Counted from the first letter of the stretch, positions 8,400-43,240 are shown. The stretch: DNA of 64,000 nucleotides from an uncultured Chloroflexia bacterium (GCA_963700285.1 CAVOXA010000010.1:1696001-1760000), one strand, 5' to 3'. Notes: generated by a model from the sequence alone, not told the origin. Numbers and translations are program-made.

Positions 8400-10718
8400 C
8401 TACTGCACAAATGCGTCCATGAACTCCCCTATGAAACCACGGATTACCTGTATGACAGTCTCACTGGGAGATTGGGGCGCGTCTTCTGTTGTGGCAGCCG
8501 TTGGTGTTGGCTCCCCGGCAGGTTCGTCCACTGGTGGCACGTCCCCCTCGCGGACCTCGTAGGCCGTGCCGTCCAGCACGACGATGACGTGGTCGCCCAG
8601 GGCAAAGTAGCGGCCCCACTCGGGCTGGGCAGCGATGAGGTCGAAATAGTCATCTCCCCCAAAGCTTAGCGGTATGGGCTTCATCCGGCCGGGATCAAAG
8701 GTGGTATCGGTCCAGGCATCGCCCTGCAGGACAAAGGTTTTGGCGCCGACGTACTTGACAGGGCTGATCTCGTAGCCATATTCGTCGGTCTCGCCACCTC
8801 CCAGACCCGAAGGCAATGCCGCCGCTGGAGCCTCGGCTTCTGAAAGTACCTTTTCCTTGGCGCTCCGCTCGACAGCCTGGGCGCCGGAGGCAGGCGCTGG
8901 CATGGCAGTGGCCTGACTCCACATACTGTCGGCAAGGGCTTCCCGGCCTTCCTCGCGCAGCGCCATCTCGGTTTCCTCTACAAGGAACGAGGTGTAGGGA
9001 GTGATGATGCCATAACGGATGGAGAGATCCACGATCTCGTCGATCAACTCCCGCCCCTCGCCGTTGAGCCGGATCTGCTGCAGCAGGTAGCCGATCTTGC
9101 GTGTGGCCCACAGCCTGGCGATGAATTCCTCGCCGCCCTCGCGGTGGAAGGCCACGTCATCATACTGGAACCGCTGGCGCCGGTCGTTGACCTCACCCTC
9201 GAGGGTGATCTCTGCATCGCCGCCTTGGCGGTAGCGGCCAACGACGACCAACTGGTTGCCGGCAAAGAGGTCTGGCAGAGGGTAGGGGTAGATCTCCTCC
9301 GCATCGATCCGGCCAAAGTCGATCTCCAGATTGGCCAGCAACGGTGTGCTAACCTTGGCGTAGAAGTCTGACACTTTTTCATCGATCGCTTCCTCGGGGC
9401 GCACGTAACCGCTGGCCCCCCGTTGGTTCTGGGCGATTGTGTCGAGCAGGACAGTGTTCACATCGTAGCCTACGCCAAAGGGAAAGATGCGAGCATTTTC
9501 AGGCGCGGCGTTGCCCACGTTGTCGATAATCCGGTCCACATCCACCTCACCGGTGGTCGGCAGGCCATCGGTCAGGAAGATGAGGGTAGTAGGGCGCTGC
9601 TCACCGGCCATGGCCAGCGCCTCCAGCAGCGCGCGGTTGATGTCGGTCGAGCCATTGGCTTCCAGTCGCCTCACAAAGTCCTGGGCCTCGCGCCGCTCAT
9701 CAGCCGGCACCAGGCCGCGGGCATAGTGGCGGGTGCCAGTGCCAAAGGCGATGACGTTGAAACGGTCCTCCTCGTGCAGGCTGTCCAGTACAAAGTCCAG
9801 CGCCTCTTTGGCCTGGTCAAGCTTTTCGCCGCGCATCGAGCCCGAAACGTCAAGAACCAGGATCACATCCTTGGCGATGACCTGTTGGGTGTCGATCTCG
9901 ACGTTGGGGGCGGCCAGAAGCAGGAAAAAGCCATCGCCGCGGCCATCGGGCTTGTAGCTGAGGAGGTTCAGGCCTACGTCCTCCGGTGAGACGGTGTAGT
10001 ACAGGACAAAGTCCCGGTCGGGCTTGACGTCGTATTCCTCGTAGCCAACGACGGCGTTGTGGTCGCCCCGGCGTACGACGTCGACGTCGTGGCTCGGGCT
10101 ATAGATGGCCTTCAGTGGCGTGTTGTCACGGATGGTAACGTTGACCGTCACCTCTTCCAGGGGCCGGGGCGAGAACTTTTCGGTATTCAGGGGATAGACG
10201 TACTCCACCAGGCCGTTGTCCATGTCCAGCACCTGGCTATATTCCAGCTCGATACGTCGCTCGCCGCCCGGGGGAATGGGATAGATGCTGGCCTGGAAAG
10301 CGTTGCGACCCACGTACTCCAGCAGGGCCGGATCGCGACGCCGCCGGACGATCTCTTCGTAGATGCGCCGGGCCTCGTCCCGTTCGAGTACCTGGCCCTC
10401 CAGCTTTTCGCCATTTACCCACATGGCGAACTCGCTGATGGCTGCCTCCTCGGGCAAGGGAAAGATATAGATCCCCTCCACCTCGTGACGGCCTTCGTTG
10501 ACAAAGACCTGGTCCACGTGGGTGGTAGCCACCTGGTCCTCAATGGTGACCGTGACGCGGTGGTACCTGATGGTCAGATAGGGCACCTCCACGGTCGGGA
10601 CAGGCGGGACCGGCTCAGGGATGATGATCCCGTCGGCCAGTGCCGGGGCCGCGGATCCGATCAGAAGGGCCAGAACGATCAGAATCCCGAATACTACTTG
10701 CACTTCTTTGCCATTCAT
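8400..10718 (-). CDS. Secreted VIT + vWA domain protein (inter-alpha-trypsin-inhibitor heavy-chain-like)
   Basis: Signal peptide (LIVLALLIGSAAPALA), VIT (EGIYIFPLPEEAAISEF), MIDAS DVSGSM and FLTDGLPT, RLWATRKI...GIITPYTSFLV; start ATG 10718. Confidence 0.9.
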   Translation of the reverse strand: MNGKEVQVVFGILIVLALLIGSAAPALADGIIIPEPVPPVPTVEVPYLTIRYHRVTVTIEDQVATTHVDQVFVNEGRHEVEGIYIFPLPEEAAISEFAMWVNGEKLEGQVLERDEARRIYEEIVRRRRDPALLEYVGRNAFQASIYPIPPGGERRIELEYSQVLDMDNGLVEYVYPLNTEKFSPRPLEEVTVNVTIRDNTPLKAIYSPSHDVDVVRRGDHNAVVGYEEYDVKPDRDFVLYYTVSPEDVGLNLLSYKPDGRGDGFFLLLAAPNVEIDTQQVIAKDVILVLDVSGSMRGEKLDQAKEALDFVLDSLHEEDRFNVIAFGTGTRHYARGLVPADERREAQDFVRRLEANGSTDINRALLEALAMAGEQRPTTLIFLTDGLPTTGEVDVDRIIDNVGNAAPENARIFPFGVGYDVNTVLLDTIAQNQRGASGYVRPEEAIDEKVSDFYAKVSTPLLANLEIDFGRIDAEEIYPYPLPDLFAGNQLVVVGRYRQGGDAEITLEGEVNDRRQRFQYDDVAFHREGGEEFIARLWATRKIGYLLQQIRLNGEGRELIDEIVDLSIRYGIITPYTSFLVEETEMALREEGREALADSMWSQATAMPAPASGAQAVERSAKEKVLSEAEAPAAALPSGLGGGETDEYGYEISPVKYVGAKTFVLQGDAWTDTTFDPGRMKPIPLSFGGDDYFDLIAAQPEWGRYFALGDHVIVVLDGTAYEVREGDVPPVDEPAGEPTPTAATTEDAPQSPSETVIQVIRGFIGEFMDAFVQ

Positions 10719-11016
10719 CTCTTCACTTCTCCTCTCTGGTATACTCGGGGCCGCGTTACATCTAAAGGACGCCTGGGGAAGGCCACAAGTTCCATCTGCA
10801 GAAGTCAAGGCTGATGAACATAAGAGAGAGCCCTGTGAGGCGTAGCTCTCCGTGCAGGGCTCTCGGGTAGACGCTCAATCGGTTGGAAAAACAGGCGGCT
10901 CTGCCTCAAACCTGCTGGACTGTGGCCCAGCAGGAGCAAGCGGCTGTAGCCAGTATTCTTTGCCAGAGCAAGCCATCGCTGGCTTGTATATTAGATGGCT
11001 GAAGGCTGACTGCTCC

Positions 11017-11604
11017 TCACAGCCCAGCCAGCGGTAGCGCCTTCAGATCCACAGGCAGGCCAGCCACCATCAGGATGGCACGGTCTGCGATGCGGGCCAA
11101 GTACTGGTTGGCCCGGCCCAGGCAGTCGCGATAGGTACGGCCCAAACTGTAAGGTGGTACCACCCCCAGTCCAACTTCATTAGAGACGACGACGAGGTGG
11201 GCACCCAACTGGCGATAGGCCCCCAGCAATGCATCCAGCTCGGCCTCAACGGCGGCCCAGGCTGCCTCAATGTCCGGTTCTGGGGCATCTGGCCCGTCGG
11301 ATAGGATGGCATTAGATACCAGCAGGGTCAGGCAGTCCAGCAGGATCACGTCTACCTGCCCGGCATCAACCGAGGTACGCAGCGCTGCCCCAACGCTCAC
11401 GGGGGCTTCGAGCGTCTTCCAGTCCGGGGGGCGGAGAGACTGGTGGGCGGCCACCCGGGCGCGCATCTCATCGTCCAGCGCCTCGGCCGTGGCCACATAG
11501 AGCACGCACTGGCCCAGTTTGGGTGCCAGGGCCTCGGCATAGGTGCTTTTGCCGCTGCGGGCCCCACCCAGGATCAGGGTCAGGGTAGATTCAGCCTTTG
11601 CCAT
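11017..11604 (-). CDS. cobU: Adenosylcobinamide kinase / adenosylcobinamide-phosphate guanylyltransferase
   Basis: GGARSGKS P-loop, [30 protein letters not shown]. Confidence 0.95.
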
Positions 11605-12406
11605 TAACCACCTCGGCTACAAGCGACCGCGAGGAAAAGAAATCCTCTCGGCCAAAGACCTCCAGAGTGAGCACGCCGTCGTAGTGGCGAGCCAACAGCA
11701 GATCCAGCACCGGCGCGACCCGCTCCACACCAAGATGCAGCAGCGATTCGTGATCGTACGGTTGGGATCCTGAGACTTTGATGCCGTGCAGGTGTACAAC
11801 GCGCGTCCAGGGCAGGTAGCAGTCCAGGAAGGACACCGGGTCGCGCCCCGTGAGCCACAGGTGGCCGGCATCAACGCACAGGCCCACAGGCACCCGCTCC
11901 AACAGAGGCAGGAAATGCTCTGGAGCATAGTTCTCCAGGTTCTCGACGCACAGCCGCTGGGCGCCGCTGGCCAGTACGGCGAGCTGTTCCAGGACCTGGC
12001 AGGCATCCTGCTGCCAGTGGGTCACCGTGGCGGGGCTGGGGGCCCCCTCCACCGATTCGGTTCCACCCGCCACGGGTCGCCTGCCATCCAGGTGCAGAAC
12101 GTAGGCCCAGGGCGCCAAGTCGCGGGTACAGGTGATCACCTTTCCCGCCTCTTCCAGCGACTGTGGATGGGTCAGCGTCAGATCCAGCGGCAGATGGACG
12201 GTGTAGGTCAGGTTATGGGTTCTCGCCAGGGCATTCAGCTCAGAGACGGTGGCAGCATCGGGTAGGTTGGAGTAGCCGTCTACCTCGAACAGAACCAGCT
12301 CCACGTCATCCACCAACGGCCCCAGCCGGCGGACGTTGGGCAAGATTTCGGCCGGCCAGACGTAGGAGGTAGCGCCCAGCCGGTAGGGCGTGCCCAGTAC
12401 CGTCAT
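11591..12406 (-). CDS. cbiR: Cobamide-remodelling phosphodiesterase CbiR-like (AP endonuclease 2 / TIM barrel)
   Basis: LGATSYV...DDVELVLFE...YTVHLPLD...CVENL...DAGHL...HLHG...DH..L...LTLEVF; lies between cobS and cobU; ATG overlaps the cobS stop. Confidence 0.8.
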
Positions 12407-13170
12407 GGCATGACCCCCTGGTAGGCCAGTATGGCCAGGGCCAGCAGGCCTACCGCCTCTGTCAGCTCGCAGATCGCTCCGTAAGCATCGCCCGTCAGCC
12501 CGCCGATCCTGGACTGGATCCACTGTGCTACCAGCAGGCCGGCAAGGGCCGCCAGCAGAAGCGGCAGCAAAGCGGTCCAGCCCAGCCCTGCCCACCAGGC
12601 CAATGCACAGGCCAGCAAGGCCGTGCCCGTGGCAATAACCAGTTGCCAGCGCCCCGCGCCGGTTTTCGCCTTCTGGCCCAATCCAGGCCCTGCTCGGGCA
12701 TAGGGGTACAACAACACCGCTCCGGTCATGCACCAGCGGGCCAGGGTGGGCACCAGGAGCAGGGACGGGAGGCGGATCTCTCCGGACAAAGCCGCCAGGG
12801 CGGCGTACTTGACCAGCAGCAGCAGCGCTACGCCAACGATGCCAAAGGCGCCGGCGTGGACGTCGCGCAGGATCTCCAGACGGCGCTCCCGCTGTACGGG
12901 AGCCAACAGGCCATCGCAGCAGTCGATAAAGCCATCCAGGTGAAGGGCGCCGGTTAGGGCTACCCAGGCGACAAGAAGTAAGGCCGCCGCCACTCCTTCG
13001 GGAAAGAGCCAGCGCAACCCCCAGTCCAGCCCGGCCAGGATGGCGCCCAGGACCAGCCCTACGGCCGGGTACCAGGCAGTTGCCTTCCCCCATGTAGCAT
13101 CGTCGAAGCGGTGGGTGCCGGGTACCGGCAGGATGGTGAGAAAGCGTAGGGCAGCCAAAAAGGGAAGCAT
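12403..13170 (-). CDS. cobS: Adenosylcobinamide-GDP ribazoletransferase (cobalamin synthase)
   Basis: FLTILP, TGALHLDGFIDCCDG, GAFG, GGLTGDAYGA; start ATG 13170. Confidence 0.95.
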   Translation of the reverse strand: MLPFLAALRFLTILPVPGTHRFDDATWGKATAWYPAVGLVLGAILAGLDWGLRWLFPEGVAAALLLVAWVALTGALHLDGFIDCCDGLLAPVQRERRLEILRDVHAGAFGIVGVALLLLVKYAALAALSGEIRLPSLLLVPTLARWCMTGAVLLYPYARAGPGLGQKAKTGAGRWQLVIATGTALLACALAWWAGLGWTALLPLLLAALAGLLVAQWIQSRIGGLTGDAYGAICELTEAVGLLALAILAYQGVMP

Positions 13171-13174
13171 GAGT

Positions 13175-14239
13175 TCAGCCCTGCGGACCAGAGATGCCTG
13201 CATCGTCAAAGGTTGCCATTTCGGACAGGATTCGGCAGGCGGCCTCGACCAGGTGCATGGCCAGTACTGCGCCCGTGCCTTCTCCAAGGCGCAGATCCAT
13301 GTCAAGCAGTGGCTTCAGCCCCAAGGTCTGCCACAGGGCGGCATGACCCCGCTCCACTGAAAGATGTGAGGCGATGAGATAGGGCTTGACAGCCGGACAG
13401 AGGGCAGCCGCAAGGAGAGCGCCTGCCGCTGAGATAAAGCCATCCACGAGGACGGGCAGGCGATGGACCGCTGCTCCCAGACAGACGCCGGCGATGGCAC
13501 CGATCTCAAATCCGCCCACGGCGGAAAGAACGCCCAAGGGGTCGGAGGGATCGGGCTGATGGAATGCCAGCGCCCGCTCAATGGTTTCTATTTTTAGCGC
13601 CAGGCCAGCGTCATCCACACCGGTGCCCCGTCCGGTCACCTGTTCCACTGGAAGGCCAGTGTAGACGGCGGTGATGGCGCTGGCCGGGGTGGTGTTGCCG
13701 ATGCCCATCTCACCGGTGGCCACCAGGTCGAGACCCCGGGCTAACTCGTTCGTCACGATCTCAAGGCCGACCTCGAGGGAGCGGGCGGCCTGCTCGCGGG
13801 TCATGGCCGGACCCTGGGAAAAGTTGGCAGTACCTGGGGCGATCTTTCGATTTAGGAGGTCCGGATGTTCCGGAAGATCGCCTGCTACGCCGACGTCGGC
13901 TATCACGACGCGAGCGCCGGCCTGGCGGGCCAGCACATTGACGGCCGCTCCGCCGCGTAAAAAGTTGAGTACCATCTGGGTGGTTACTTTGGAGGGGTAG
14001 GCACTCACTCCCTCAGCCGCGATGCCGTGGTCTCCGGCCAGGACGATGACGGCCTTCCGATCCACGCGAGGCTGGGGCTGGCCGGTGATACCCGCCAGTT
14101 GGATGGAGAGGGCCTCCAGGCACCCCAAGCTGCCCTGGGGTTTGGTCAGGCCATCCTGGCGAGCCCGAGCGGCTGCCATCGCCGCTTCATCCAAGGGGGG
14201 GATCTGAGTACAGAGTTCGGTGATGGAATGTGTTGTCAA
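13175..14239 (-). CDS. cobT: Nicotinate-nucleotide--dimethylbenzimidazole phosphoribosyltransferase
   Basis: LTKPQGSLG.LE, AGDHG, GEMGIGNTT, VDGFIS, RLGEGTGA. Confidence 0.97.
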   Translation of the reverse strand: MTTHSITELCTQIPPLDEAAMAAARARQDGLTKPQGSLGCLEALSIQLAGITGQPQPRVDRKAVIVLAGDHGIAAEGVSAYPSKVTTQMVLNFLRGGAAVNVLARQAGARVVIADVGVAGDLPEHPDLLNRKIAPGTANFSQGPAMTREQAARSLEVGLEIVTNELARGLDLVATGEMGIGNTTPASAITAVYTGLPVEQVTGRGTGVDDAGLALKIETIERALAFHQPDPSDPLGVLSAVGGFEIGAIAGVCLGAAVHRLPVLVDGFISAAGALLAAALCPAVKPYLIASHLSVERGHAALWQTLGLKPLLDMDLRLGEGTGAVLAMHLVEAACRILSEMATFDDAGISGPQG

Positions 14240-15018
14240 ATCGGTCTCACCTCAAAAAAGAATCGTTGTTGAAAGCGCCGCAACAGGCGTACGACTGGGG
14301 CAGCGAACAGGAGCAGTAGCACAAAATTGCCCGCAGCTCGTGCCAGGTCCCACCATAGCGAAGTCACGGCGTAAAAGATGGCATAGCGCCGCAGGATCTC
14401 GACAAGGGGCAGGCCGGGCTGCCAATACATCTCGGACTGGCCGGGCGTGAACACGTAGGGCCAAAAGTAAACGTTCATCAACACCCCAAAGGCAAGGCCC
14501 AGGATCAGGCCCCAGACCGCCAGCATCAGGGCCTCGGCCAGAGGATGACCCTCTAGACGGGGCAGCCAGCCCGAGAGCAGCCCCACCCAGCCGGCGGCGA
14601 ACATCTGGTAGGGCAGCCACGGACCCACGCCAAAACCCAAGAAACCTGACACGGCCAGGGAAAAAACACCCAACAGAAAGCCAAAAGTCGGGCCGTAGAC
14701 GTAGCCACACAGGATGGGCAGGATGAAAACGAGGGTAAACCCGGCCGGCCCCGGCACGCCCCGCAGTACGGCGTTGGCCGCTGTCAGGACGCCCAGAACA
14801 GCGATCAGCTTGGCGTTCATCATGCCGGCCGATAGGCTGCTCAGGACCGCACTCAGGCACAGTACAACCAATACCACAAAGATGAGGGGCGCATCCTGGG
14901 CATGGGCCGCCGAGGTAAAGCCGTCCCCCTGTTGGGGCACGACGAAGGGATATAAGAATGCTCCCAGGCCAATCAGGCTGGCAACGGCGAGAATTGCGGC
15001 ATTCAGTACCTTCTGCAT
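14236..15018 (-). CDS. ECF transporter S-component, predicted corrinoid-specific
   Basis: Multi-TM; FILPIL.G..YGP.FGFLLG, GVGPWLPYQM, WDLARA.GN; first gene under a B12 riboswitch. Confidence 0.85.
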   Translation of the reverse strand: MQKVLNAAILAVASLIGLGAFLYPFVVPQQGDGFTSAAHAQDAPLIFVVLVVLCLSAVLSSLSAGMMNAKLIAVLGVLTAANAVLRGVPGPAGFTLVFILPILCGYVYGPTFGFLLGVFSLAVSGFLGFGVGPWLPYQMFAAGWVGLLSGWLPRLEGHPLAEALMLAVWGLILGLAFGVLMNVYFWPYVFTPGQSEMYWQPGLPLVEILRRYAIFYAVTSLWWDLARAAGNFVLLLLFAAPVVRLLRRFQQRFFFEVRPI

Positions 15019-15082
15019 AGCAGTGCTTTAGCCCACCAAGAGATTTCCCGGTCGAGATACCGGGACCTCAATGCTCATATCT

Positions 15083-15114
15083 AACAAGAAACCTCCTGCC
15101 TTCTGGCAAGAGGT
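15083..15114 (-). terminator. Intrinsic terminator in the expression platform of the leftward riboswitch
   Basis: Minus strand acctcttgcc-agaa-ggcaggaggt followed by ttcttgtt. Confidence 0.75.
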
Positions 15115-15170
15115 GGTCAATGGCCCAAGGGCCATGCACCTACCACCTTTCCACGAAGGTTCACAGTGCG

Positions 15171-15393
15171 TGACCATGGCAGGCGGTCTGGCTTGAGTGG
15201 CAGTCAGTGATGAGGGGTCTGCAGTCAGACTGAACAATCTCTTTGCGACCCACGCTTGCTGTCTACGACTCTTACAGTTGCGGGACAGCGCCGGACTTGG
15301 CATATGCCTTGGCAAACACTGGTGCCAAGACACAGGTTCCACCGGCTTCCCCTCTTGGGCCCCGTGCATCCGGGCGACAGGGCACCATGGTCA
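15171..15393 (-). ncRNA. Cobalamin riboswitch (leftward, controls ECF-S/cob operon)
   Basis: Minus strand ggtgccc...gggaagccggtg...tccggcgctgtcccgcaactgt...aagccagaccgcctgcca (B12 box); P1 tgaccatgg/ccatggtca. Confidence 0.93.
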
Positions 15394-15414
15394 GCGGTTT
15401 TGAATTGGGGCACC

Positions 15415-15443
15415 AATATAACACAGCTACTGTGGACTGTCAA
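15415..15443 (-). promoter_or_regulatory. Sigma70 promoter for the leftward riboswitch
   Basis: TTGACA-17-TATATT with extended TG. Confidence 0.75.
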
Positions 15444-15482
15444 GCTTTGTGAAAGACACGATGAATCGATGACAAGTCCGTT

Positions 15483-15511
15483 TTGACACGCCAGGCGCTT
15501 TGTGCTAGAAT
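15483..15511 (+). promoter_or_regulatory. Sigma70 promoter for the rightward riboswitch
   Basis: TTGACA-17-TAGAAT with extended TG. Confidence 0.75.
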
Positions 15512-15552
15512 GCACACAGTTGTCGGCACTTTCCAACTGAATAGTATAGCTC

Positions 15553-15713
15553 AGCAGTGGTGCCCTAGGTCCGGATGCCAGGGCACAATGGCGAAGACCG
15601 GTGAGAGTCCGGCGCTGTCCCGCAACTGTAAGAGAGGCCGTACATGACACGTCAGCGGTGATGCAAGTTCCATCGTTGACCGCTTCTCAAGCCAGGACGC
15701 CCGCCACTGACTG
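15553..15713 (+). ncRNA. Cobalamin riboswitch (rightward)
   Basis: ggtgccc...ccggtgagagtccggcgctgtcccgcaactgt...aagccaggacgcccgcca; P1 cagtgg/ccactg. Confidence 0.93.
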
Positions 15714-15772
15714 TCCGCTATTGCTACCTTCGAGAGAAAGGGGGGCGCGGAGTATGGCACAACCATAAACCG

Positions 15773-15837
15773 ATCCCCTTGTGAAGTGAAACAAGGGGAT
15801 TTCTCATGCCCGGCGCTTTCGTCGGGCATCTTTCTTT
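15773..15837 (+). terminator. Two tandem terminator-like hairpins after the riboswitch
   Basis: atccccttgt...acaaggggat-ttctc and atgcccggcg-cttt-cgtcgggcat-ctttcttt. Confidence 0.7.
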
Positions 15838-15912
15838 GGTGGGACCAGGCGATGATCTGCACCATTGGCAATATGCAGACACAATTCAATCAGAGAATAG
15901 GAGACAGGCGAG

Positions 15913-17285
15913 ATGAAAACCACCAAGTCAAAGATCGGACTTTTGCTCACTGTAGTGGCTGCTACGGTCATCACGTTTATGGTGGCCTTAAGTGTTCAGG
16001 TGGGACCGACACAGGCGCAGGAAACGTCGCCGCCAGCGGCCGCGGCGGACAGTGCGGCCCATGTCATCATTCAGTTTGCCGATGGGGCCACTGCCGTCAG
16101 GCCCATCTCTTGGACGGGCACAATCTCTCGGGTCGTCGCGTTGGAGCTGGCTGGGTTTGAGGTCGAGAAAAGTGGCGACGCAGTGTGCAATATCGAGGGG
16201 GAAGGTTGTCCGGCCACCGATTGTTTCTGCGCCGACAACCTATGGGCACAAGGAATATGGGCGGGCATGGCCTGGGATGGTGCCGCTTGGCCGCCGCCTG
16301 ATCTGAGGGACGGTGACGTGGTAGCCTTCCGGAATGGGACACAGGCAGACTACAGCGATTGGGGCTTGACCGGTAGACTATCGGGCGCCCCAACCTATGT
16401 TGCTGCCTCGGATGCGCTGGAGTGGATGCGCGCCCAGCAACAACCAGATGGGAGCTACATGGACAGTTTTGGCAAGATAGGCGCCTCGGCTAGAGCCCTC
16501 GTGGCGCTAGGCTCGGCCGGCTACGATCCTGCCGAGTGGGGGGATCCTGATCTCCTCAGTTTCCTGACCGTGGTGTCCAAGACCCAGACTGCCGAGTATG
16601 CCGCTGCGTCGGCCGCGGGGGCTGGCAAGCTGGCCCTGGGCGCAGCCTGGACCCAGCAGCCGGTGACTGACTTTGCTGGAATCAACCTGCCGATCAGCAT
16701 CACGACCTACTATAGCGACACCACCGGCGCCTATGGCGTTGGTAGCGGTGACACGGCCTGGGCGGTGTTGGGCCTTTCCGCTGCTGAAGAAGAAATCCCG
16801 GCCAGGACGGTCAAATTTCTTGAAGGAGTGCAGAACGACGATGGCGGATGGGCCTGGAATGAATGGGGAGCCACGAGCGAGACGCAGCATACGGCCGCTT
16901 GTGTGCAGGCTCTGCTGGCTGCGGGTGAACCGATGACCTCTACCGCAATCAGCAAGGCGCTGGTGTTTCTCGAACGGGACGTGGAATGCCAATGGTGGAT
17001 TCGCCTACACGCCACCGGGCGACAGCGATGTCAGTTCGACCGCGTACGCGCTCCAGGGTTTCCTGTCTGCTCGGAGAAGAGCCAGCGGGCAACTGGTGCA
17101 CCAGCATCCAGAGTAGATACCTGCTTGCCCAACAGAAAGCCGATGGCAGCTACCCGAGCTTTTCGCCCCTGTATGCCACCCAGGAGACGATCCCGGCCTT
17201 GATGTACCAGCCCTACGGACGAAGAGCGGCATGGAGCTTCAATTGCTATGAGAGCTATCTGTCAATGGCCTTTGGACCGCAGTAG
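15913..17285 (+). CDS. Secreted protein: DUF4430/transcobalamin-beta-like domain plus prenyltransferase/squalene-oxidase-repeat alpha-toroid; two +1 frameshifts (~16975, ~17072)
   Basis: Signal peptide; VCNIEGEGCP..DCFC...W...DGDVV; QW-type repeats QQQPDGSY, VQNDDGGW, (shifted) WNANGGFAY, QQKADGSY. Confidence 0.75.
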
Positions 17286-17348
17286 CGGACGTTCTTCCGG
17301 TTCCGGCCCGGGTCAGCCTGGACCGGAACCGGGTAAGTGGAGGGCTAG

Positions 17349-18569
17349 ATGCGAGGAAAAAGAACCCTCTTGAGCGCAATGGCCGTGTTACTCGGCAGCC
17401 TGCTGCTCATCGGGCCGAGTCTGGCAATCGGGCGGGCCCAAGCGCCCAATCAGGCGGGCCTGGTGGTGCAGTTGGGTGATGGCTCTCTAATCACCCGCTG
17501 CATAGACTTTAGCGAATCCGAGATCAACAGCTACGATCTGTTGCTTCGTTCTGGCCTGACCGTTGTCACCTCTGGCGACCCGACAGTGGGAATGGCCGTC
17601 TGCAATATCGAGGCGGAGGGTTGTCCGGCCAGCGATTGCTTCTGCCAGTGCAAGGGCAGTACCTGCACCTACTGGTCCTACTGGCACCTGGTGGACGGGG
17701 CCTGGCAGTATTCTTCGCTCGGCGCCAGCGGCCATACGGCTGCCCCTGGCGACGTCGAGGGCTGGCACTGGGGTGAGGCACAGCCCCCGCCGGTTATACC
17801 CTTGGCCGAGATCTGCGTCCCGCCAGCGACCGACACACCCGAGCCCACACCCACCTGGACATCGTCGCCGACCCCCCTGCCGACCGATACGCCATCGCCC
17901 AGCCCTGAGCCGTCGGCCACCTGGACGCCCTCTCCTAGCGCGCTACCGCCCACGGACACACCGTTGCCCACGGACACACCAGACCCAACAGTGACCGAGG
18001 CAGCCACCGCGACGCCCACCACCAAAGTGCCCATTGCCTTGCAGGCAACGCCGGAACCAGTGCCCGAGTCCGGCGGCTCCGGCCAGGCCGGCCCAACGAT
18101 AACATCGACGCCCGACGCCTCCAGCCAGGTACAGCCAACGGCTGCCCCTGCTCCGACCGACACATCGGAGCCACCACCGCCTACGTCACCTCCGCCTACG
18201 CCGATACCGGTGGTGCAGAGCTCGGCTACCCCGGCCCAGATCCCGCCCGCCACAGTCACGCCGGCGGCAGTGATGCTGCCGACCAATACACCTCTACCCC
18301 TGGCAACCCAGGTAGCTCTGGCGGCAGATCCTGCTTCCGGAGCGCGATCGGACGCCGCCCAAGCAGGTCAGGAGAGCGGGCAGACAAGAAGCAACAAGAA
18401 CCTATTGACCATCCTCAGCGTTGGTGTGGGGATGGCCTACATCTTTTTCGTGCTGTTCGTGGTTGTTTTGGCAGGGCTATTCGTCCTGGTCAGGCTCAGA
18501 GCAGCGCTAGGAGGTGAGAGATGCCCGACCTGCTGGAAAGGAATGACGTTTCGACGCTTTACGCCCTGA
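17349..18569 (+). CDS. Membrane-anchored surface protein: DUF4430-like Cys-rich domain, long Pro/Thr stalk, C-terminal TM helix
   Basis: Signal peptide; AVCNIEAEGCPASDCFCQC...YWSYWH...WQYSSLGA......GDVEGWHWG; PT-rich region; hydrophobic C-terminal helix. The true stop may be the TAG near 18508 if an indel is present. Confidence 0.8.
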   Translation: MRGKRTLLSAMAVLLGSLLLIGPSLAIGRAQAPNQAGLVVQLGDGSLITRCIDFSESEINSYDLLLRSGLTVVTSGDPTVGMAVCNIEAEGCPASDCFCQCKGSTCTYWSYWHLVDGAWQYSSLGASGHTAAPGDVEGWHWGEAQPPPVIPLAEICVPPATDTPEPTPTWTSSPTPLPTDTPSPSPEPSATWTPSPSALPPTDTPLPTDTPDPTVTEAATATPTTKVPIALQATPEPVPESGGSGQAGPTITSTPDASSQVQPTAAPAPTDTSEPPPPTSPPPTPIPVVQSSATPAQIPPATVTPAAVMLPTNTPLPLATQVALAADPASGARSDAAQAGQESGQTRSNKNLLTILSVGVGMAYIFFVLFVVVLAGLFVLVRLRAALGGERCPTCWKGMTFRRFTP

Positions 18570-19041: not shown

Positions 19042-21278
19042 CTACGGTGTAACCGACGGGCGGGTCATGCCACCTACGTCTGCGCCCAGATCGGCCTGGC
19101 TGTCGTACAGGAATTGGAGGATGTACTTGGGATTATGGGCAAAAGCGCCAGGATCCTTTCTGGTATACTGGTAGTTGTAGGCTGCCCGAAGTAGACGCGG
19201 CGTCCAGGCAGCATAGCGGTTGTCATAGACAGCCTCACCCTCGTCGGCTTCTCCATTGCCGTCCGTGTCGGAGAAAAAGTAGGGATAGGTGTGAGGTTCA
19301 TAGACGATGGGAGTTCCGGTAACGCCGGTCGCATAGTCCTGCATGGCAGCGTACAGGCCCTGAGCTCATGCCGTCGATCTCGCCGGCGATCCCTTCTTCG
19401 GTGTCACCGTCGCCGTCATAGTCCGTGCTGTCCATGCGAATGCTAGCCAGGTCCTCTCGGGTCTGTACGCCCGGGTGACAAGCACCGCACTCCTCTACCT
19501 CGACGTCCTGGCGATGGGTGTCGTGGCACTGGGTGCAAGTCCTGTAGGCTTCCACGTGCGTCAGCCGGCCGTTGTATCCTTCCGATCCATACTCGTAGGC
19601 TCCCTGGACCTCCGTACCGTATAGGGTGGCGCCCAGCCGCAAAGTAGTGGATGTTGATGAACTCCTGCCCATCGATGACCGTGTCCAGGTCCTGGCCCGC
19701 GATGGCGCCGTTGATCGTAGCGATGGAGCTCAGCCCCTGGTGGCAGTTGAGGCACAGGTTGCTGCTTGGGTCGCCGCTGTCGATCAGCGTGCCCCTGGGG
19801 AACCTGACCCAATCTACTGGATAGATCGAGAAGGTGGTCAGGTCGTCGTGGCAGGTGGCGCAGTTCAGCCCATTGGAGGGCTGCTCCGTGATGTTCACCC
19901 CCTCGGTCAGGTACAGGGGCAGACCGTCCTTCGTGTGACACCGGGCGCAGTGGCCGGGTACGCTGCCCTCCTCATCCCAGTTGCGGAATGCTCTCTCCGA
20001 GCCGGCAAAGTGGCCGTGGTCGATGCGGTTCACCTTCGAGAGATCGATGGGATTGGACAGTGCTTCATTCAGGTTCTCGATGGAGTCGTACAGTAGCTGG
20101 ATCATGTACTTGCCACCGTGGGCATAGGAACCAGGATCCTTGAGCGAGGTCTGATAGTTGTAGGCGGCTTTAGCCAGGCGGCCGGTCCAGGCATTGTAGC
20201 CGTTGGAGGGGTCGGCCTCACCTTCATCCACTTCGCCGTTGGCATTGCCGTCAACGAAAAAGTAGGGGTAGATGTGGGATTCATAGACGATGGGCGTACC
20301 CGATACCTCAGCGGTGTAAGCCCGGATCGCCTCGTAGAGCATCTCCTGTAGGCCCTCAACCTCGTAATAGATGCCCTCTTCCAGATCGCCGTCGCCGTCA
20401 TAATCCACCAGCGAGCCCGCCATGCGTCGATCCTTGGGGTCGCTCTCGGTATGGCATTCACTGCAGGTTTCTGTTTTCAGCTCCAACGTATGAGTGTCGT
20501 GACAACCGACACAGGTATCCAGGCCTGCTACGTGGTCATGCTTGGCGTCGTAGGCCTTGCCCTCATACTCGTAGCCTCCCTGCGCCAGGGTACCATACAG
20601 GGAAGCCGCCGCGGCCTTGTAATGGATGTTGGTAAAGCCCAGATCCTCGCTCACCGTATCCATATCCTCCAGGCCGGCCTCGGCAATCGCATCGTCCACG
20701 GAAGCCTTGGACGTCCGTCCCTGGTGGCACTCCATGCAGCGGGCCTCGGGGCCAAGACCGGTAATCTCCATGCCCGAAGGAAAGACTACGGTGTCCCAGG
20801 TTTCGGTGGCCTTGTTGTGGCAGGTGTTGCAGTTGATCACGGTCCCCACGGCGTGGTCATTGTCCACGGCGCGCGCCGCACTGCCATCCATCCCCAAAAA
20901 GTCCAGGTAGCCGGTCTCGCTATGGCACTTGGCGCAGTTGGCAGGGATGACCGGCGGATCATCATCGTCCCAATGGCGGAACGCCTCTGCTTCTGCGTCG
21001 GCGTGGGCGGACGCGGCCCACTCGGCATCATAGGCGGTTTGCGTGTCTGTACCAGGACCTGCCGGACATTCTGCCTCCGGGCACTCGGGACATTCTGCCT
21101 GTGGGCAGACCGGGCAGTCCGGACAGGTCTCTACGGCCGGACAGTCCGGACACTCTACTTGTGGACATTCCGGGCAATCCGGACATTCGGGACAGGGCTC
21201 TGAAGTTGCTCCACAACCAACCAGCACAAGAGCCAGCAACAGGCCGAGCGCCACTACCACCAGCGGCTTCCACTGCAT
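19042..21278 (-). CDS. Multiheme (10 CxxCH) c-type cytochrome lipoprotein with tandem 5-heme modules; two frameshifts (~19635, ~19360)
   Basis: Lipobox LVGC; CAKCH, CNTCH, CMECH, CVGCH, CSECH, CARCH, CATCH, CLNCH, then CTQCH and CGACH in the shifted frame; duplicated AFRxWD / NIHY.AA / YPYFF / AAYNYQ blocks; RBS ggagga. Confidence 0.85.
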
Positions 21279-21500
21279 TGGGTTCATTCCTCCTAGGTCC
21301 GTGCAAGTTGCAGACGCGTTACATGATATCACAGTTCTCCAGAGAAACGAAATCTGCCCTTGTAGCCGGTCTGCACCGGTCTCGACCAGAGAATGGTTGT
21401 TTGTCTTCCCGGGCCAAAAAGGATATAATGACCAGGGACTGTGATGGTTGAACCCACAGTGTGAGTCCAAGCCTGCTGCATGCTGAAGGGAGCGTGGATC

Positions 21501-22475
21501 GTGAGTGAACTGCTTGTTGCTGCTACGAACCAAGGCATTGTCGTCGCTGGGCGTGGGGACGAGGTTTGGCAGGTACAGAGCCAGAGCCTGAAAAGCCACC
21601 GGGTCAATACCTTGAGCGTTCAGAAGGGAACGGTCCTGGCTGGTACAAGGCAGGGCATCTATCGCTCCAGCGACCAGGGGCAAACCTGGCAGGCCGCCAG
21701 CGAGGGGCTGACCGAACTTCACGTGCGCTGGATGGCTCACCATCCCGATGGGTCGGGCACAGTTCTGGCTGGCACCGAGCCGGCAGCCCTCTTCCTTTCA
21801 CGCGATGGTGGGCAGACATGGGCAGAGCGCCCCGAGGTAGCCCAGCTTCGCGACGAGCATGGCTGGTACTTGCCCTACTCGCCCGAGGCCGGCTGCGTGC
21901 GTGGTTTTGCCTTTCACGGCGACCGCGTCTACGCTGCCGTAGAAGTGGGCGGGCTGCTGCGCTCCGATGATGGTGGTGAAACCTGGCATCTGGCCAAGGG
22001 CAGCAGCGGCGACCCTCGCGCCCTGCCAAGGGACCATATCCACCCCGACGTGCATTCCGTGGTCGCGCATCCCTCATCACCAGATCTGCTCTTTGCCCCA
22101 ACTGGTGGCGGCTTTTACTCTTCAGAGGATGGCGGCGAGACGTGGGAGCAGTCTTATCGGTGTTATTGTCGGGCCGCATGGGTCGATCCCCATGACGCCG
22201 GGCACCTGATCCTTGGCCCTGCCGACTCGGTGAACCGCGAGGGTCGTATCGAAGAGACCCAGAATGGTGGGGCGACCTGGGGGCCAGCCTCGGAGGGACT
22301 TGTGGTGCCCTGGCCGCGCCACATGCTCGAGCGCTTGCGGCAAGAGGGCGAGGAGCTGTTCGCCGTGCTATCCAATGGCGAGCTGCTGTCTGCTTCCCTG
22401 GCGAAGCTTGCCTGGCAGCGTATCCTGCCCGCTGTAGAGGGGGTACATGCCTTGGCCATCATGAAGCTGGACTGA
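21501..22475 (+). CDS. WD40/YVTN/BNR-like beta-propeller protein
   Basis: Repeated Asp-box motifs S.D.G.TW; GTEPAALF.S.DGG.TW; HPDVH. Confidence 0.85.
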   Translation: MSELLVAATNQGIVVAGRGDEVWQVQSQSLKSHRVNTLSVQKGTVLAGTRQGIYRSSDQGQTWQAASEGLTELHVRWMAHHPDGSGTVLAGTEPAALFLSRDGGQTWAERPEVAQLRDEHGWYLPYSPEAGCVRGFAFHGDRVYAAVEVGGLLRSDDGGETWHLAKGSSGDPRALPRDHIHPDVHSVVAHPSSPDLLFAPTGGGFYSSEDGGETWEQSYRCYCRAAWVDPHDAGHLILGPADSVNREGRIEETQNGGATWGPASEGLVVPWPRHMLERLRQEGEELFAVLSNGELLSASLAKLAWQRILPAVEGVHALAIMKLD

Positions 22476-24569: not shown

Positions 24570-24632
24570 ATGACCAGTGACCAATGACCGGTAGCCGCCT
24601 TGCGTGGTCATCGCGCATTGGCCATTGGTAGC
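24570..24632. repeat. Inverted heptamer-array element
   Basis: tgaccag tgaccaa tgaccgg ... tggtcat cgcgcat tggccat tggtagc. Confidence 0.65.
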
Positions 24633-24647
24633 GGATATTTGCTCACT

Positions 24648-42168: not shown

Positions 42169-43240
42169 GTGCTGGACAAAGTCAAGCTGGTTGAGGAACG
42201 ATACGAAGAGCTATCCCGCCTGATGGCCGATCCCGAGGTGGTGATCGACCATGTCAAGGTGACTGAATATGCCCAGGAGCAGCGCGAACTCGAGGATCTG
42301 GTGCAGGCCTATCGCCATCACCAAGCCCTGGAAGCAGAACTCTCTGACACGCGCGAGTTGCTGGAGATGGAAGACGAAGCAGAAATGCGCGAGATGGCTG
42401 AGCAAGAGATCTCGCGCATCGAAGGGGAAATGGAGGCGCAGTACGAGCGGTTGCGCCTCATGCTCCTGCCCAAAGATCCATTAGACGAAAAGAACGTGAT
42501 CATGGAGGTCCGGGCCGGAACCGGCGGCGACGAGGCTGGAATTTTTGCGGCCGACCTGCAACGCATGTATACCCGCTACGCCGAGACCCAGAAATGGAAG
42601 ATCGATTTACTAAGTGCCAATAGGACGGGCGTGGGCGGCGTCAAAGAGGTTGTCTTTGAGATCAAGGGCAGGGGGGCCTACTCCCGGCTAAAGTACGAGA
42701 GTGGCGTCCACCGGGTCCAACGGGTGCCTGCCACCGAGTCCCAGGGGCGCATCCATACCTCCACGGCGACGGTGGCTGTGCTTGCCCGAGATCGATGACG
42801 TCGAGATCGAAATCAACCCTGCCGACTTGGAAACAGACGTCTATACCTCGTCGGGGCCTGGCGGGCAGCACATGCAAAAGAACGCCACGGCGGTGCGCAT
42901 CACCCACATTCCCAGTGGCATGGTGGTCTCATGTGAGAGCGAGCGGAGCCAGACCCAGAATCGGATGAGGGCCATGGCTGTACTCCGTTCCCGTCTATAC
43001 GAGGCCGAACAGCAGCGGCAGCAGGCCGAGCGGGGCGACGAGCGCCGCCTGCAGGTAGGTTCGGGGGAGCGCAGCGAAAAGATCCGTACTTACAACTATC
43101 CCCAGAACCGGGTCACCGATCATCGCATTGGGCTGACGCTCTATCGGTTGGATACGATTATCAACGGTGACCTTGACGAGTTTGTCGACGAGTTAGCGAC
43201 GACGGAACAAGCAGAACGGCTGCAGGCCATCGGTGTTTGA
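42169..43240 (+). CDS. prfA: Peptide chain release factor 1, split by a +1 indel at ~42783
   Basis: [17 protein letters not shown] (PxT motif of RF1), [13 protein letters not shown], then in the +1 frame PEI...GPGGQ...[20 protein letters not shown]; followed by prmC. Confidence 0.95.

Follow-up and report, generated by a model that had tools for sequence, protein, structure and literature searches.

A divergent cobalamin-riboswitch locus in an uncultured Chloroflexia bacterium with predicted roles in corrinoid capture, import, and remodelling

The locus described here probably serves corrinoid scavenging under the control of B12 riboswitches, comprising the capture, import, and rebuilding of B12-like cofactors. 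It lies in a stretch of 64,000 nucleotides from an uncultured Chloroflexia bacterium, referred to below as the window, and consists of two divergent, back-to-back cobalamin riboswitches, each heading its own operon. The leftward operon encodes an ECF S-component, CobT, CobS, CbiR, and CobU, and the rightward operon encodes two exported proteins, which are predicted to bind corrinoids outside the cell. Rather than a new kind of system, the locus represents a local version of one whose prediction dates back to 2007 (Burroughs et al.).

Layout and control of the locus

The features are given in the order of their coordinates.

11017..11604, minus strand: cobU, adenosylcobinamide kinase / cobinamide-phosphate guanylyltransferase (PF02283, 188.5 bits; NF004469 equivalog, 186.9, cut-off 161)
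11591..12352, minus strand: cbiR, predicted cobamide-remodelling phosphodiesterase (NF041277 equivalog, 223.5 bits, cut-off 105, model positions 13-247 of 249)
12403..13305, minus strand: cobS, adenosylcobinamide-GDP ribazoletransferase (PF02654, 179.7 bits; TIGR00317, 144 bits, cut-off 110)
13175..14239, minus strand: cobT, nicotinate-nucleotide:dimethylbenzimidazole phosphoribosyltransferase (TIGR03160, 475.3 bits, cut-off 319.3; PF02277, 476 bits)
14236..15018, minus strand: membrane protein, ECF-type S-component, CbrT-like by context (homology to a PF12822-positive fusion; context)
15091..15114, minus strand: terminator-like hairpin of the leftward leader, likely the expression platform (10-bp stem, 6 GC pairs, T-rich tail)
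15161..15404, minus strand: leftward cobalamin riboswitch aptamer (RF00174, 53 bits, E 2.4e-10, model positions 1-189, full)
15415..15443, minus strand: sigma-70-like promoter of the leftward operon (TTGACA-17-TATATT, 11/12, TG-extended)
15483..15511, plus strand: sigma-70-like promoter of the rightward operon (TTGACA-17-TAGAAT, 11/12, TG-extended)
15541..15722, plus strand: rightward cobalamin riboswitch aptamer (RF00174, 68.0 bits, E 1.2e-14, model positions 1-189, full)
15806..15829, plus strand: terminator-like hairpin of the rightward leader (10-bp stem, 7 GC pairs, T-rich tail)
15913..17285, plus strand: beta-domain/toroid protein, secreted or N-terminally anchored (three-frame reading; homolog alignment; AF2 model of a homolog)
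17349..18569, plus strand: stalked surface protein (AF2 model of residues 1-174; composition; hydropathy)

Both aptamers exceeded the gathering score of the RF00174 covariance model of Rfam (31.5 bits) over its full length, confirming the two cobalamin riboswitches proposed in the first-pass annotation. That each has its own TTGACA promoter and terminator was also borne out. The two near-consensus promoters compare with 0.6 ± 0.7 in shuffled sequence, and each hairpin sits between the aptamer and the first gene, which places the promoter-, aptamer-, and terminator-like motifs in the expected order. From this order, putative ligand-dependent riboswitch control of both operons is predicted, and low corrinoid would cause read-through at both leaders.

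The genome, which is 89% complete, holds only three RF00174 matches, all at parts of the capture-import system. The third, on another contig (contig 1), heads a paralogous capture pair of toroid and stalked beta-domain proteins, followed by a dedicated EcfT and a fused EcfAA'. There are 42 matches to PF02310 (B12-binding domains), 41 of them above the Pfam cut-off, and a PduO-type adenosyltransferase is present. The organism would depend on a route of corrinoid scavenging and remodelling: against these 41 B12-binding domains, a search of the genome returned neither CbiC nor CbiB, although both may lie in the part missing from the incomplete assembly.

The leftward operon and its relatives

CobU, CobT, CobS, and CbiR all passed curated model cut-offs, CbiR by way of an equivalog, so the earlier enzyme assignments were upheld. 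CbiR also matches PF01261, the AP endonuclease 2 / TIM-barrel fold family (55.8 bits, cut-off 31.1). Its start was set at 12352, with the open frame extending further upstream, and cobS, whose Pfam match sets in only at residue 52, probably has its true start near 13170. CbiR cleavage of cobamides to cobinamide-phosphate was demonstrated only for the Akkermansia enzyme (PMC7733943), and the protein encoded here is predicted from its sequence to be a phosphodiesterase that converts cobamides to cobinamide-phosphate and alpha-ribazole. Inside the cell, CbiR would remove the lower-ligand nucleotide to leave cobinamide-phosphate, CobU would guanylylate this product, CobT would activate the preferred base, and CobS would join the two.

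The window S-component itself matched no Pfam family at E <= 0.01, PF12822 included, and its identity was assigned through relatives. It is 44% identical (E 5e-62) to the C-terminal, PF12822-positive part of the fusion protein P0164, which passes PF12822 at 39.1 bits (cut-off 30.7), and its ortholog in locus L090 reached 49.9 bits with the same family. Atlas features gave 0.98 to clusters named 'ECF transporter S component', and many of the 1848 homologs are labelled as ECF S-components by their sources. Of the 68 metagenome loci that extend upstream of the S-component, 41 have EcfAA' as the immediate upstream neighbour; EcfT is the next gene downstream in 19 of 66. As far as sequence can tell, the protein is an ECF S-component by homology to PF12822-passing proteins and by linkage to EcfT/EcfA, as the first-pass annotation had it. 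The gene is single copy in the genome (G000). When a profile of 41 homologs was run against PDB chains, no solved S-component, L. delbrueckii CbrT included, came up at E <= 10; S-components are so divergent that this does not speak against a relationship. The label 'CbrT' stems only from an automatic Atlas cluster name. From gene context alone, we infer a corrinoid as the substrate.

T and A units had been described as missing locally, and indeed no CbiQ-type T unit was found within the window, the nearest lying about 80 kb beyond its end, nor any ABC ATPase gene among the 46 window ORFs. The S-component would be powered by an EcfT/EcfAA' module encoded elsewhere, most likely the one behind the third B12 riboswitch on contig 1, beside the paralogous toroid and stalked-beta pair.

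The association of the S-component with the beta domain of the exported proteins was surveyed across the class, in 150 genomes besides this one. Each occurred in 87 genomes, and both were present in 84 of the 90 genomes with either, the remainder holding the S-component alone (3) or the beta domain alone (3). In 64 of these 84 genomes the two lie within 6 kb of each other. Natural fusions join a stalked beta domain to an S-component (P0164), a beta-toroid protein to a stalked beta domain (P0121), and two beta domains to a toroid in the order beta-beta-toroid (P0142), and a 1320-aa ORF fuses the S-component with ATPases. The beta domain is tied to this S-component family by co-occurrence, adjacency, and natural fusion, in line with the coupling of capture proteins to ECF uptake put forward earlier.

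The linkage to B12 riboswitches, on which the earlier reading had been made to depend, recurs in the homologs. A cobalamin-clan riboswitch lies upstream on the same strand in 26 of 36 related beta-toroid loci; five of the ten loci without one have less than 280 nt of upstream DNA, and 5 of the 31 assessable loci have no riboswitch within 2.5 kb. Among the metagenome operons, 10 of 14 carry a riboswitch, and the four misses are cut at the operon start. The intact operon of L091 reads riboswitch-toroid-stalked beta-EcfT-EcfAA'-S, L090 has the same order with CbiR in addition, and the operons of L108 and L138 run on as S-CobT-CobS-CbiR-CobU. CobT, CobS, CbiR, and CobU share a transcript with the S-component at this locus as well as in L092, L108, and L138. 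The proposed coupling of CbiR remodelling to ECF uptake stands as an adjacency at this locus but is a minority arrangement, cbiR adjoining the S-component in 3 of the 26 genomes of the class that hold both.

It is quite improbable that the surface proteins and the S-component handle another tetrapyrrole, such as heme, or another soluble ligand, with the B12 riboswitches reflecting substitute or linked metabolism. The idea draws on an ECF system with transcobalamin-like secreted proteins in L. sakei, Lsa1836-1840, which was implicated in heme uptake (bioRxiv 10.1101/864751), on a caution by the reviewers of Burroughs et al. (2007, PMC1796856) that SLBB domains may differ in their ligands, and on the failure of sequence searches to connect the S-component with CbrT, the solved S-component specific for B12. 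Against it, every cobalamin riboswitch found in the genome heads part of the system, the S-component shares its transcript with the remodelling enzymes in several loci, related loci repeatedly carry upstream riboswitches, and the genome has many B12-binding domains, whereas neither CbiC nor CbiB was found in it.

The exported proteins

The two rightward proteins share a Cys-rich stretch, as had been noticed before; it covers 70 aa, is 43% identical between them (E 7e-14), and contains VCNIE.EGCPA.DCFC. The stalked protein consists of a signal peptide (residues 5-30), the Cys-rich beta domain (33-158, 8 Cys), a stalk (159-352), and a C-terminal anchor (350-389). The 194-aa stalk contains 24% P, 19% T, 10% S, and 14% A, matching the Pro/Thr stalk of about 200 aa and the C-terminal TM anchor of the first-pass annotation.

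The AF2 model of residues 1-174 of the stalked protein (pLDDT 90.6) predicts the order E34-41, E47-54, H61-67, a hairpin of E72-77/E81-87, and then three more strands. Burroughs et al. (2007, PMC1796856) recognise transcobalamin-like SLBB domains by a beta-grasp with a beta-hairpin inserted after the helix, and the predicted strand order matches this signature. The best 11 Foldseek matches of the model in the PDB were all transcobalamin, haptocorrin, TC-beta, or 3u7z. VIA superposed it on the beta domains of haptocorrin, intrinsic factor, and transcobalamin and on 3u7z with Z 11.3-12.3 and an rmsd of 2.0-2.4 Å over 94-99 residues, and the next unrelated chain scored Z 5.8. The structure comparison thus supports the suspected similarity to the transcobalamin beta domain, and the shared Cys-rich domain is predicted to have this specific transcobalamin-beta/DUF4430-like fold. 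The Pfam search of both window proteins gave no match to DUF4430 (PF14478) and no sequence-level family, hhalign of the beta domain with the DUF4430-bearing relative P0115 gave a probability of 0.3%, and the PDB profile search with the beta domain returned only low-complexity stalk matches; in sequence, then, the domain showed no connection to DUF4430 or transcobalamin. A newer Pfam accession, PF28005, is precomputed on homologs of the Cys-rich domain.

The protein of 15913-17285 begins with a hydrophobic segment (6-33) that marks it as exported, followed by the Cys-rich transcobalamin-beta-like domain and an alpha/alpha toroid with four QW-like repeats. It aligns to intact homologs of 455-460 aa at 79-84% identity, one of which, P0003, was modelled by AF2 (pLDDT 91.6, pTM 0.86). 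The best VIA matches of the toroid were squalene-hopene cyclases (Z 26.0, rmsd 2.7-2.8 Å over about 265 residues), and its profile search gave E 5.9e-25 to 1gsz. Sugar epimerases and glycosidases with an alpha/alpha toroid followed at Z 20-21; the transcobalamin alpha domains fell outside the best 50 VIA rows and ranked 34-38 in Foldseek. In the model, the toroid shares with transcobalamin only the general alpha/alpha-toroid fold and is nearer to class II terpene cyclases. PF01122, the Pfam family of eukaryotic cobalamin-binding proteins, gave no match in the window toroid-gene fragments or P0003, and only the distant relative P0102 passes it (26.1 bits, cut-off 25). The proposed domain-permuted transcobalamin analogue accordingly holds for the beta-then-alpha order and the beta fold, but not for the toroid.

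These matches, to cyclases first and to sugar-acting enzymes next, could be taken to mean that the toroid, once exported, acts on terpenoids or glycans as an enzyme or as a binding module of the envelope, with the beta domains as adaptors that bind no corrinoid. We consider this highly improbable. The catalytic motif of class II terpene cyclases is DxDD, and no D.D[DE] occurs in any of the three frame pieces of the window protein. The protein is exported, its toroid shares a chain with a transcobalamin-beta-like domain, just as transcobalamin combines the two, and genes of the family are linked to B12 riboswitches and ECF components.

The toroid gene spans three frames, with one extra base near 16975 and another near 17069/17070. 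Both frameshifts are likely consensus errors of the assembly. Contigs of relatives, at about 94% identity, lack exactly these two bases, and the flanking genes and both riboswitches are intact. A release-factor gene in the window is likewise read in two frames, its PCRF and RF-1 domains being separated at 42701-42798, and another broken gene encodes a multihaem cytochrome, a pattern that fits base-calling errors. At locus 2, the paralogous one on contig 1, short-read contigs of run X4 that are near-identical to the assembly (1-2 other letters differing in 151) carry a frame-restoring single-base indel at both sites covered (9953, 10169). It is unlikely, by comparison, that the toroid gene is a real pseudogene of the strain, in which case the S-component operon and the stalked beta protein would be all that still works and the paralogous locus on contig 1 would be decaying too. 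In favour of decay, the two +1 shifts are non-compensating, fall within 95 nt, and lie outside homopolymer runs, and no contig at >= 99% identity spans the two indel sites of the window gene. Furthermore, aligned to an intact relative, the roughly 5 kb of locus 2 change frame at least 7 times, a higher density than in the rest of the window.

In the proposed mechanism, the beta-toroid protein would clamp a corrinoid between its two domains in the fashion of transcobalamin. The second beta domain, held on a Pro/Thr stalk of about 190 residues above the membrane anchor, would catch corrinoid further out in the envelope of a single-membrane bacterium and hand it over to the S-component.

A bolder reading, which is speculative and rather doubtful, makes the Cys-rich stalked domain a new class of bacterial corrinoid receptor, a tethered 'fishing line' that would catch diverse cobamides outside the wall and dock on the S-component; some relatives carry the two as one covalent fusion. 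The conserved Cys cluster would lie beside the hairpin that contacts B12 in transcobalamin and take part in ligand handling like the BtuM cysteine, and the S-component would be wired directly to CbiR and CobUTS. If so, a B12-hungry, non-producing Anaerolineae bacterium could live on any corrinoid released by its neighbours, and all three B12 riboswitches of the genome would serve one distributed machine.

Comparison with known systems

The best non-cyclase NCBIfam matches of the toroid and the beta domain are the families of Streptomyces SCO2321 and SCO2322 (NF053823, NF040672), which are neighbouring-gene families. The scores are far under the cut-offs (NF053823, 54-61.5 against 300; NF040672, 24.6-39.5 against 85), and a search for functional literature on these families found none.

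The ECF-CbrT of L. delbrueckii (PDB 6FNP) resembles the present transporter in having an ECF-type S-component, a B12-related context, and an ECF module encoded elsewhere (Santos et al., 2018, PMC5997447), and it differs in that the S-component profile here has no detectable similarity to any solved chain. As described there, ECF-CbrT moves cobalamin and cobinamide and transports B12 without surface helper proteins, so the surface proteins of this locus may be dispensable for transport.

The CbiR equivalog adjoining cobU, cobT, and cobS recalls the CbiR remodelling of Mok et al. (2020, PMC7733943), whose text places many CbiR homologs in Chloroflexi and near cobamide genes. Here, cbiR additionally sits in one operon with an ECF S-component, under a single riboswitch.

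Like the exported toroid protein, animal transcobalamin, intrinsic factor, and haptocorrin (PDB 2bb5, 2pmv, 4kki) combine a beta domain and an alpha/alpha toroid in one chain. In the bacterial protein, however, the domain order is reversed (beta then alpha), only 8-14% of residues are identical, the toroid has its closer structural kin among terpene cyclases, and there is an extra Cys cluster that the family signature of the animal proteins lacks.

Burroughs et al. (2007) had already predicted this architecture, and it has also been put forward for Lactobacillus sakei. Lsa1836-1840 of L. sakei is an ECF-like system with an S-component, a fused AA', a T unit, and a pair of secreted proteins, one similar to the beta and one to the alpha domain of transcobalamin, for which a hand-off to the S-component was proposed (Verplaetse et al., bioRxiv 10.1101/864751). 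It differs in its separate alpha and beta proteins, its Firmicutes host, and heme as the proposed cargo, and the available text of that report describes no riboswitch or remodelling enzymes.

The closest precedent is the system of Burroughs, Balaji, Iyer, and Aravind (2007, PMC1796856), who found that bacteria fuse SLBB domains to toroids in both possible orders, that a paralogous SLBB gene may accompany the fusion within its operon, and that these genes are linked to CbiO/CbiQ, and who predicted a role in B12 scavenging in hosts without B12 biosynthesis genes. The beta-then-alpha order is thus not a new permutation. The present locus has in common with that system a secreted SLBB and toroid fusion, a second extracellular paralog, ECF-type linkage, and the lack of B12 biosynthesis genes. 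It differs in its Cys-rich subfamily, which is undetected by Pfam DUF4430, in a Pro/Thr stalk and membrane anchor in place of a Gram-positive wall anchor, in its split over three riboswitch-headed units, and in the co-transcription of its S-component with CbiR and CobUTS.

The riboswitch pair and the remodelling operon

The reading of this region as a real and coherent B12 salvage locus is well supported, and the first-pass annotation was right in its main lines, although the system it described is not new. The features of the locus, in window positions, were as follows.

15541-15722 (+): cobalamin riboswitch aptamer, full length (Rfam, 68.0 bits, E 1.2e-14)
15161-15404 (-): cobalamin riboswitch aptamer, full length (Rfam, 53 bits, E 2.4e-10)
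15806-15829 (+): GC-rich hairpin with a T-rich tail, between aptamer and first gene
15114-15091 (-): GC-rich hairpin with a T-rich tail, between aptamer and first gene
14236-15018 (-): S-component, a 260-aa polytopic membrane protein, first gene of the leftward operon
13175-14239 (-): CobT (TIGR03160, 475 bits)
12403-13305 (-): CobS (TIGR00317, 144 bits; cut-off 110)
11591-12352 (-): CbiR (NF041277 equivalog, 223.5 bits; cut-off 105)
11017-11604 (-): CobU (NF004469, 187 bits; cut-off 161)
15913-17285 (+): beta-toroid protein, first rightward gene, in three frames
17349-18569 (+): stalked protein, second rightward gene, intact; signal-like segment (residues 5-30), beta domain with 8 cysteines (33-158, 126 residues), stalk (159-352; 24% P, 19% T, 10% S, 14% A) and hydrophobic anchor (350-389)

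Both aptamers scored above the Rfam gathering score of 31.5, which bore out the back-to-back cobalamin riboswitches proposed at first pass. They diverge, with two divergent promoter-like sites between them, each pairing an exact TTGACA with a TG-extended -10 element across a 17-nt spacer (11/12 matches); shuffled sequences gave 0.6 ± 0.7 such sites. On each side the order of aptamer, hairpin and gene is consistent with transcription attenuation. Simple scans for a terminator 3′ of cobU and 3′ of position 18569 found none.

The four enzymes of the leftward operon, called cobT, cobS, cbiR-like and cobU at first pass, were all named by curated models. Rebuilding of the nucleotide loop by CobU, CobT and CobS comprises established steps. 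The Akkermansia CbiR is described as hydrolysing cobamides to cobinamide-phosphate and alpha-ribazole, and its homologs as common near cobamide genes in Chloroflexi (PMC7733943). CbiR exceeded its cut-off in 52 other genomes of the class, 26 of which also hold the S-component, and the two genes lay within 1 kb of each other in only 3 of these 26, making their adjacency an uncommon arrangement. The next gene after cobU on its strand (8400-10808, -) encodes an 802-aa exported VIT and von Willebrand factor A protein that showed no connection with the B12 locus.

The S-component is single-copy in this genome, and by itself it fell into no Pfam or NCBIfam family. A homologous protein, P0164, whose C-terminal part shares 44% identity with it (E 5e-62), passes PF12822 (ECF_trnsprt), and the ortholog of the S-component at the related locus L090 passes both PF12822 and PF07155. 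By its Atlas features it belongs (0.98) with clusters named 'ECF transporter S component', among them one auto-named CbrT. At least 1848 homologs were found, the best 120 at 77-93% identity, and many carry the source name ECF S component. Since a profile of 41 homologs failed to match any S-component structure in the PDB, even that of the characterised CbrT, its substrate is assigned from context only.

Predicted folds of the rightward proteins

The two rightward proteins share a Cys-rich domain (43% identity over 70 residues, E 7e-14), referred to here as the beta domain. AlphaFold2, given 93 sequences, modelled the first 174 residues of the stalked protein at a mean pLDDT of 90.6; the model has the order strand-strand-helix-hairpin-strands, with the 'hairpin after the helix' that defines the transcobalamin-like SLBB clade (Burroughs et al. 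2007, PMC1796856). The best 11 Foldseek matches in the PDB were transcobalamin, haptocorrin, the isolated transcobalamin beta domain and the DUF4430 protein 3u7z, and the clean VIA-align alignments gave Z values of 11.3-12.3 with an rmsd of 2.0-2.4 Å over 94-99 residues; the next chain was an unrelated beta-grasp protein at Z 5.8. By sequence methods, no Pfam link from the beta domain to DUF4430 or transcobalamin was found, the beta-domain alignment, searched against the PDB, matched nothing but Pro/Thr low-complexity stretches, and hhalign found nothing against a DUF4430-bearing relative.

An intact homolog, P0003, was folded as a stand-in for the broken beta-toroid gene (pLDDT 91.6, pTM 0.86). 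The nearest matches of its toroid, at residues ~155-445, were class II terpene cyclases (Z 26 over ~265 residues, 18-21% identity; profile E 6e-25), with transcobalamin and haptocorrin appearing only at Foldseek ranks 34-38 and absent from the 50 best VIA rows. The protein in the window has four QW-like repeats and no DxDD motif. A secreted terpene cyclase was considered and rejected on the absence of this motif and the genomic context. Judged from these models, the beta domain is specifically transcobalamin-like, while the likeness of the alpha domain goes no further than the general toroid fold; the proposed transcobalamin analogue thus stood for its beta domain and not for its toroid.

The beta domains hold even numbers of cysteines, four in the beta-toroid protein and eight in the stalked protein, and their invariance across homologs suggests that they form disulfides; they may also have a ligand role. 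Past its anchor the stalked protein (window 18500-18569) continues for ~25 residues, among them a CPTC motif (Cys 392 and 395); the close homolog P0116 lacks this tail, ending directly after the anchor.

Frameshifts and the division of the operon

Alignment of the beta-toroid gene to intact homologs of 455-460 aa (79-84% identity) revealed single extra bases near 16975 and 17069/17070, the two indels suspected at first pass. The evidence points to consensus indel errors of the assembly. Public metagenome contigs of relatives (~94% identity, run depth 2-6) are exactly one base shorter at each of 16975 and 17069/17070; none at ≥99% identity covers 16975 or 17069. Real pseudogenisation would be an unlikely source of the frameshifts, considering that the relatives' contigs are free of both extra bases, that two further genes in the window are also broken, and that near-identical contigs at a second, paralogous B12-riboswitch operon of this genome (locus 2) differ from the assembly by single-base indels. 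The two broken genes were located as follows.

42169-43240 (+): release-factor gene, split over two overlapping frames, with a PCRF domain (42169-42798) and an RF-1 domain (42701-43240)
43351-44199: PrmC-like methyltransferase, 3′ of the split release-factor gene
19042-21743 (-): multihaem cytochrome-like gene with many CxxCH motifs and a Cytochrome_C7 match, in three frame pieces (19443-21743, 19298-19672 and 19042-19344)

Because the release-factor break presumably lies far from the programmed RF2 frameshift site, the split seems to come from an assembly indel within an essential gene. The multihaem cytochrome-like gene seemingly consists of two internally repeated halves. At locus 2 at least seven frame changes over ~5 kb were counted against the intact proteins of L091, a locus from the same family as the window organism. 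Two 151-nt contigs from run X4, with only 1-2 other letters different from the assembly, carry single-base indels at both indel sites covered (9953 and 10169), and contigs from runs X1 and X2 have indels at these sites and at eight more. Indels are far denser in locus 2 than in the window, and they are absent from the public contigs of relatives and from the two near-identical ones. A further 1397-aa ORF of the window (24600-28793, +) joins a YfhO-like membrane part to a Polysacc_synt/MurJ-like flippase part, and represents either a true fusion or two separate genes that an assembly indel has merged.

Intact relatives encode the toroid, stalked beta protein, EcfT, fused EcfAA′ and S-component in one long operon behind a riboswitch, as at L091 and, with CbiR inserted, at L090. 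Among 80 metagenome loci around S-component homologs, 68 included upstream and 66 downstream DNA. The gene directly upstream was EcfAA′ in 41 of the 68 and a beta gene in 11, and CobT followed directly in 8 of the 66, all closer relatives (79-93% identity); L108 and L138 have the order S-CobT-CobS-CbiR-CobU. Ten of the 14 metagenome loci taken to Rfam begin with a riboswitch, the other four being cut at the operon start. The double divergent riboswitch was rejected as a conserved architecture, most relatives having a single long operon with one riboswitch. An S-component with its own riboswitch occurs only at L092 (93% identity) and L096, and no second, opposite-strand riboswitch was found at L096.

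In this genome three separate units make up the system.

Window, leftward: S-component and remodelling genes, with their own riboswitch
Window, rightward: fused beta-toroid protein and stalked protein, divergent from the S-component unit
Locus 2: RF00174 riboswitch (contig 1, 622417-622590) heading toroid, stalked beta, EcfT and fused EcfAA′

The locus 2 riboswitch is the only RF00174 match in the genome besides the window pair. A dedicated EcfT/EcfAA′ module is thus encoded away from the window under the same type of riboswitch control, which agrees with the earlier remark that no T/A units are encoded locally. Locus 2 spans 617300-622600 of contig 1 (L009:6300-11600), and its toroid has a C-terminal anchor. 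The genome holds four other CbiQ-type genes.

Association with B12, proposed mechanism and known systems

Three comparative tests established the association of the system with B12 and ECF genes as real. From 79 beta-toroid or toroid loci in species-representative genomes, 40 were taken to Rfam, namely the complete set of 36 with a match beginning no later than residue 51 (beta plus toroid) and four toroid-only loci. A cobalamin-clan riboswitch lay upstream on the same strand in 26 of the 36, supporting the first-pass link between these proteins and B12 riboswitches, and in one of the four; of the ten beta-toroid loci without one, five had <280 nt of upstream DNA and five had 2.5 kb. Toroid-only relatives (query residues ~155-435, 25-34% identity) also occur in Archaeoglobi, Methanomicrobiales and other methanogen MAGs (L044, L047, L048, L059, L063, L071-L074, L082-L084); no cobalamin riboswitch was found within 2.5 kb in the two tested, L044 and L082.

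Across 150 other genomes of the class, the S-component and the beta domain each occurred in 87, together in 84 and alone in 3 each. In the neighbourhood survey of these 84 genomes, 64 had the two within 6 kb of each other; in 18 they lay on different contigs, and in the other 2 they were far apart. Natural fusions join the stalked beta protein to the S-component (P0164) and both rightward proteins to each other (P0121), and P0142 is beta-beta-toroid. At L089 (2919-6881, -; contig 1 of genome G070) a 1320-aa ORF contains an S-component (PF12822, residues 242-406) and two ABC ATPase domains (~850-1300) with a membrane part in between, apparently an ECF importer in one polypeptide; no riboswitch was found in this 14-kb locus. 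In three more genomes of that family (G024, G111 and G146), the S-component lies within very long frames (1157-1751 aa).

No CbiC, CbiB or CobA, and no corrin-ring synthesis gene, was found in the 89%-complete genome of the window organism, which has a PduO-type adenosyltransferase and 42 PF02310 B12-binding domain matches, 41 of them over the Pfam cut-off. Many of these proteins are ~220 aa and many others ~480-500 aa, sizes that we take to be typical of corrinoid methyltransferase partners and B12-dependent radical SAM enzymes, respectively. The corrinoid-dependent repertoire is unusually large for a genome in which CbiC and CbiB were not detected. Weighed at 89% completeness, the pattern fits a heavy corrinoid user that probably lives by salvage.

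In the proposed mechanism, the beta-toroid protein would hold a captured corrinoid between its two domains in the manner of transcobalamin, and the stalked beta domain would capture corrinoid as well; the ligand would then be transferred to the S-component and imported in an ATP-driven step by the separately encoded ECF module, after which CbiR would cleave it and CobU, CobT and CobS would rebuild it. The locus and its relatives offer a compact testable set for B12 capture ahead of ECF import in single-membrane bacteria. It includes an intact domain of 126 residues whose transcobalamin-beta-like model is confident, fusions found in nature that indicate the partner of the beta domain, and an operon that links import directly to CbiR remodelling. 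Sediments and digesters are rich in Anaerolineae, and since 41 B12-binding domains were found and corrin-ring synthesis genes were not, the system would bear on cobamide dependencies in such communities.

In the literature searched, which excluded subscription journals and supplements, no biochemical test of any bacterial transcobalamin-like protein was found, nor anything pertinent on SCO2321-2324 or any work joining cobalamin riboswitch, prenyltransferase and ECF; on capture ahead of ECF import, only a 2007 prediction and a heme preprint were found. The window system is not a new kind, most of its features having been described in 2007. That analysis reports bacterial secreted SLBB domains fused to toroids, paralogous SLBB genes within one operon, linkage to CbiO/CbiQ and hosts without B12 synthesis, and predicts a B12-scavenging role (Burroughs et al. 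2007, PMC1796856). The 'beta-then-alpha' order proposed as a permutation is present here, but is not new, as the same source describes fusions in either order. A 2019 preprint on Lactobacillus sakei proposes this hand-off too, with an ECF S-component receiving its ligand from transcobalamin-alpha-like and beta-like proteins, but the ligand proposed there is heme (bioRxiv 10.1101/864751), and the L. delbrueckii ECF-CbrT is reported to import B12 and cobinamide without helpers (PMC5997447). Particular to the window system are the Cys-rich, stalk-borne form of the beta domain, the extra fused beta-toroid protein, the S-component in one operon with CbiR and CobUTS, and the split over three riboswitch-headed units.
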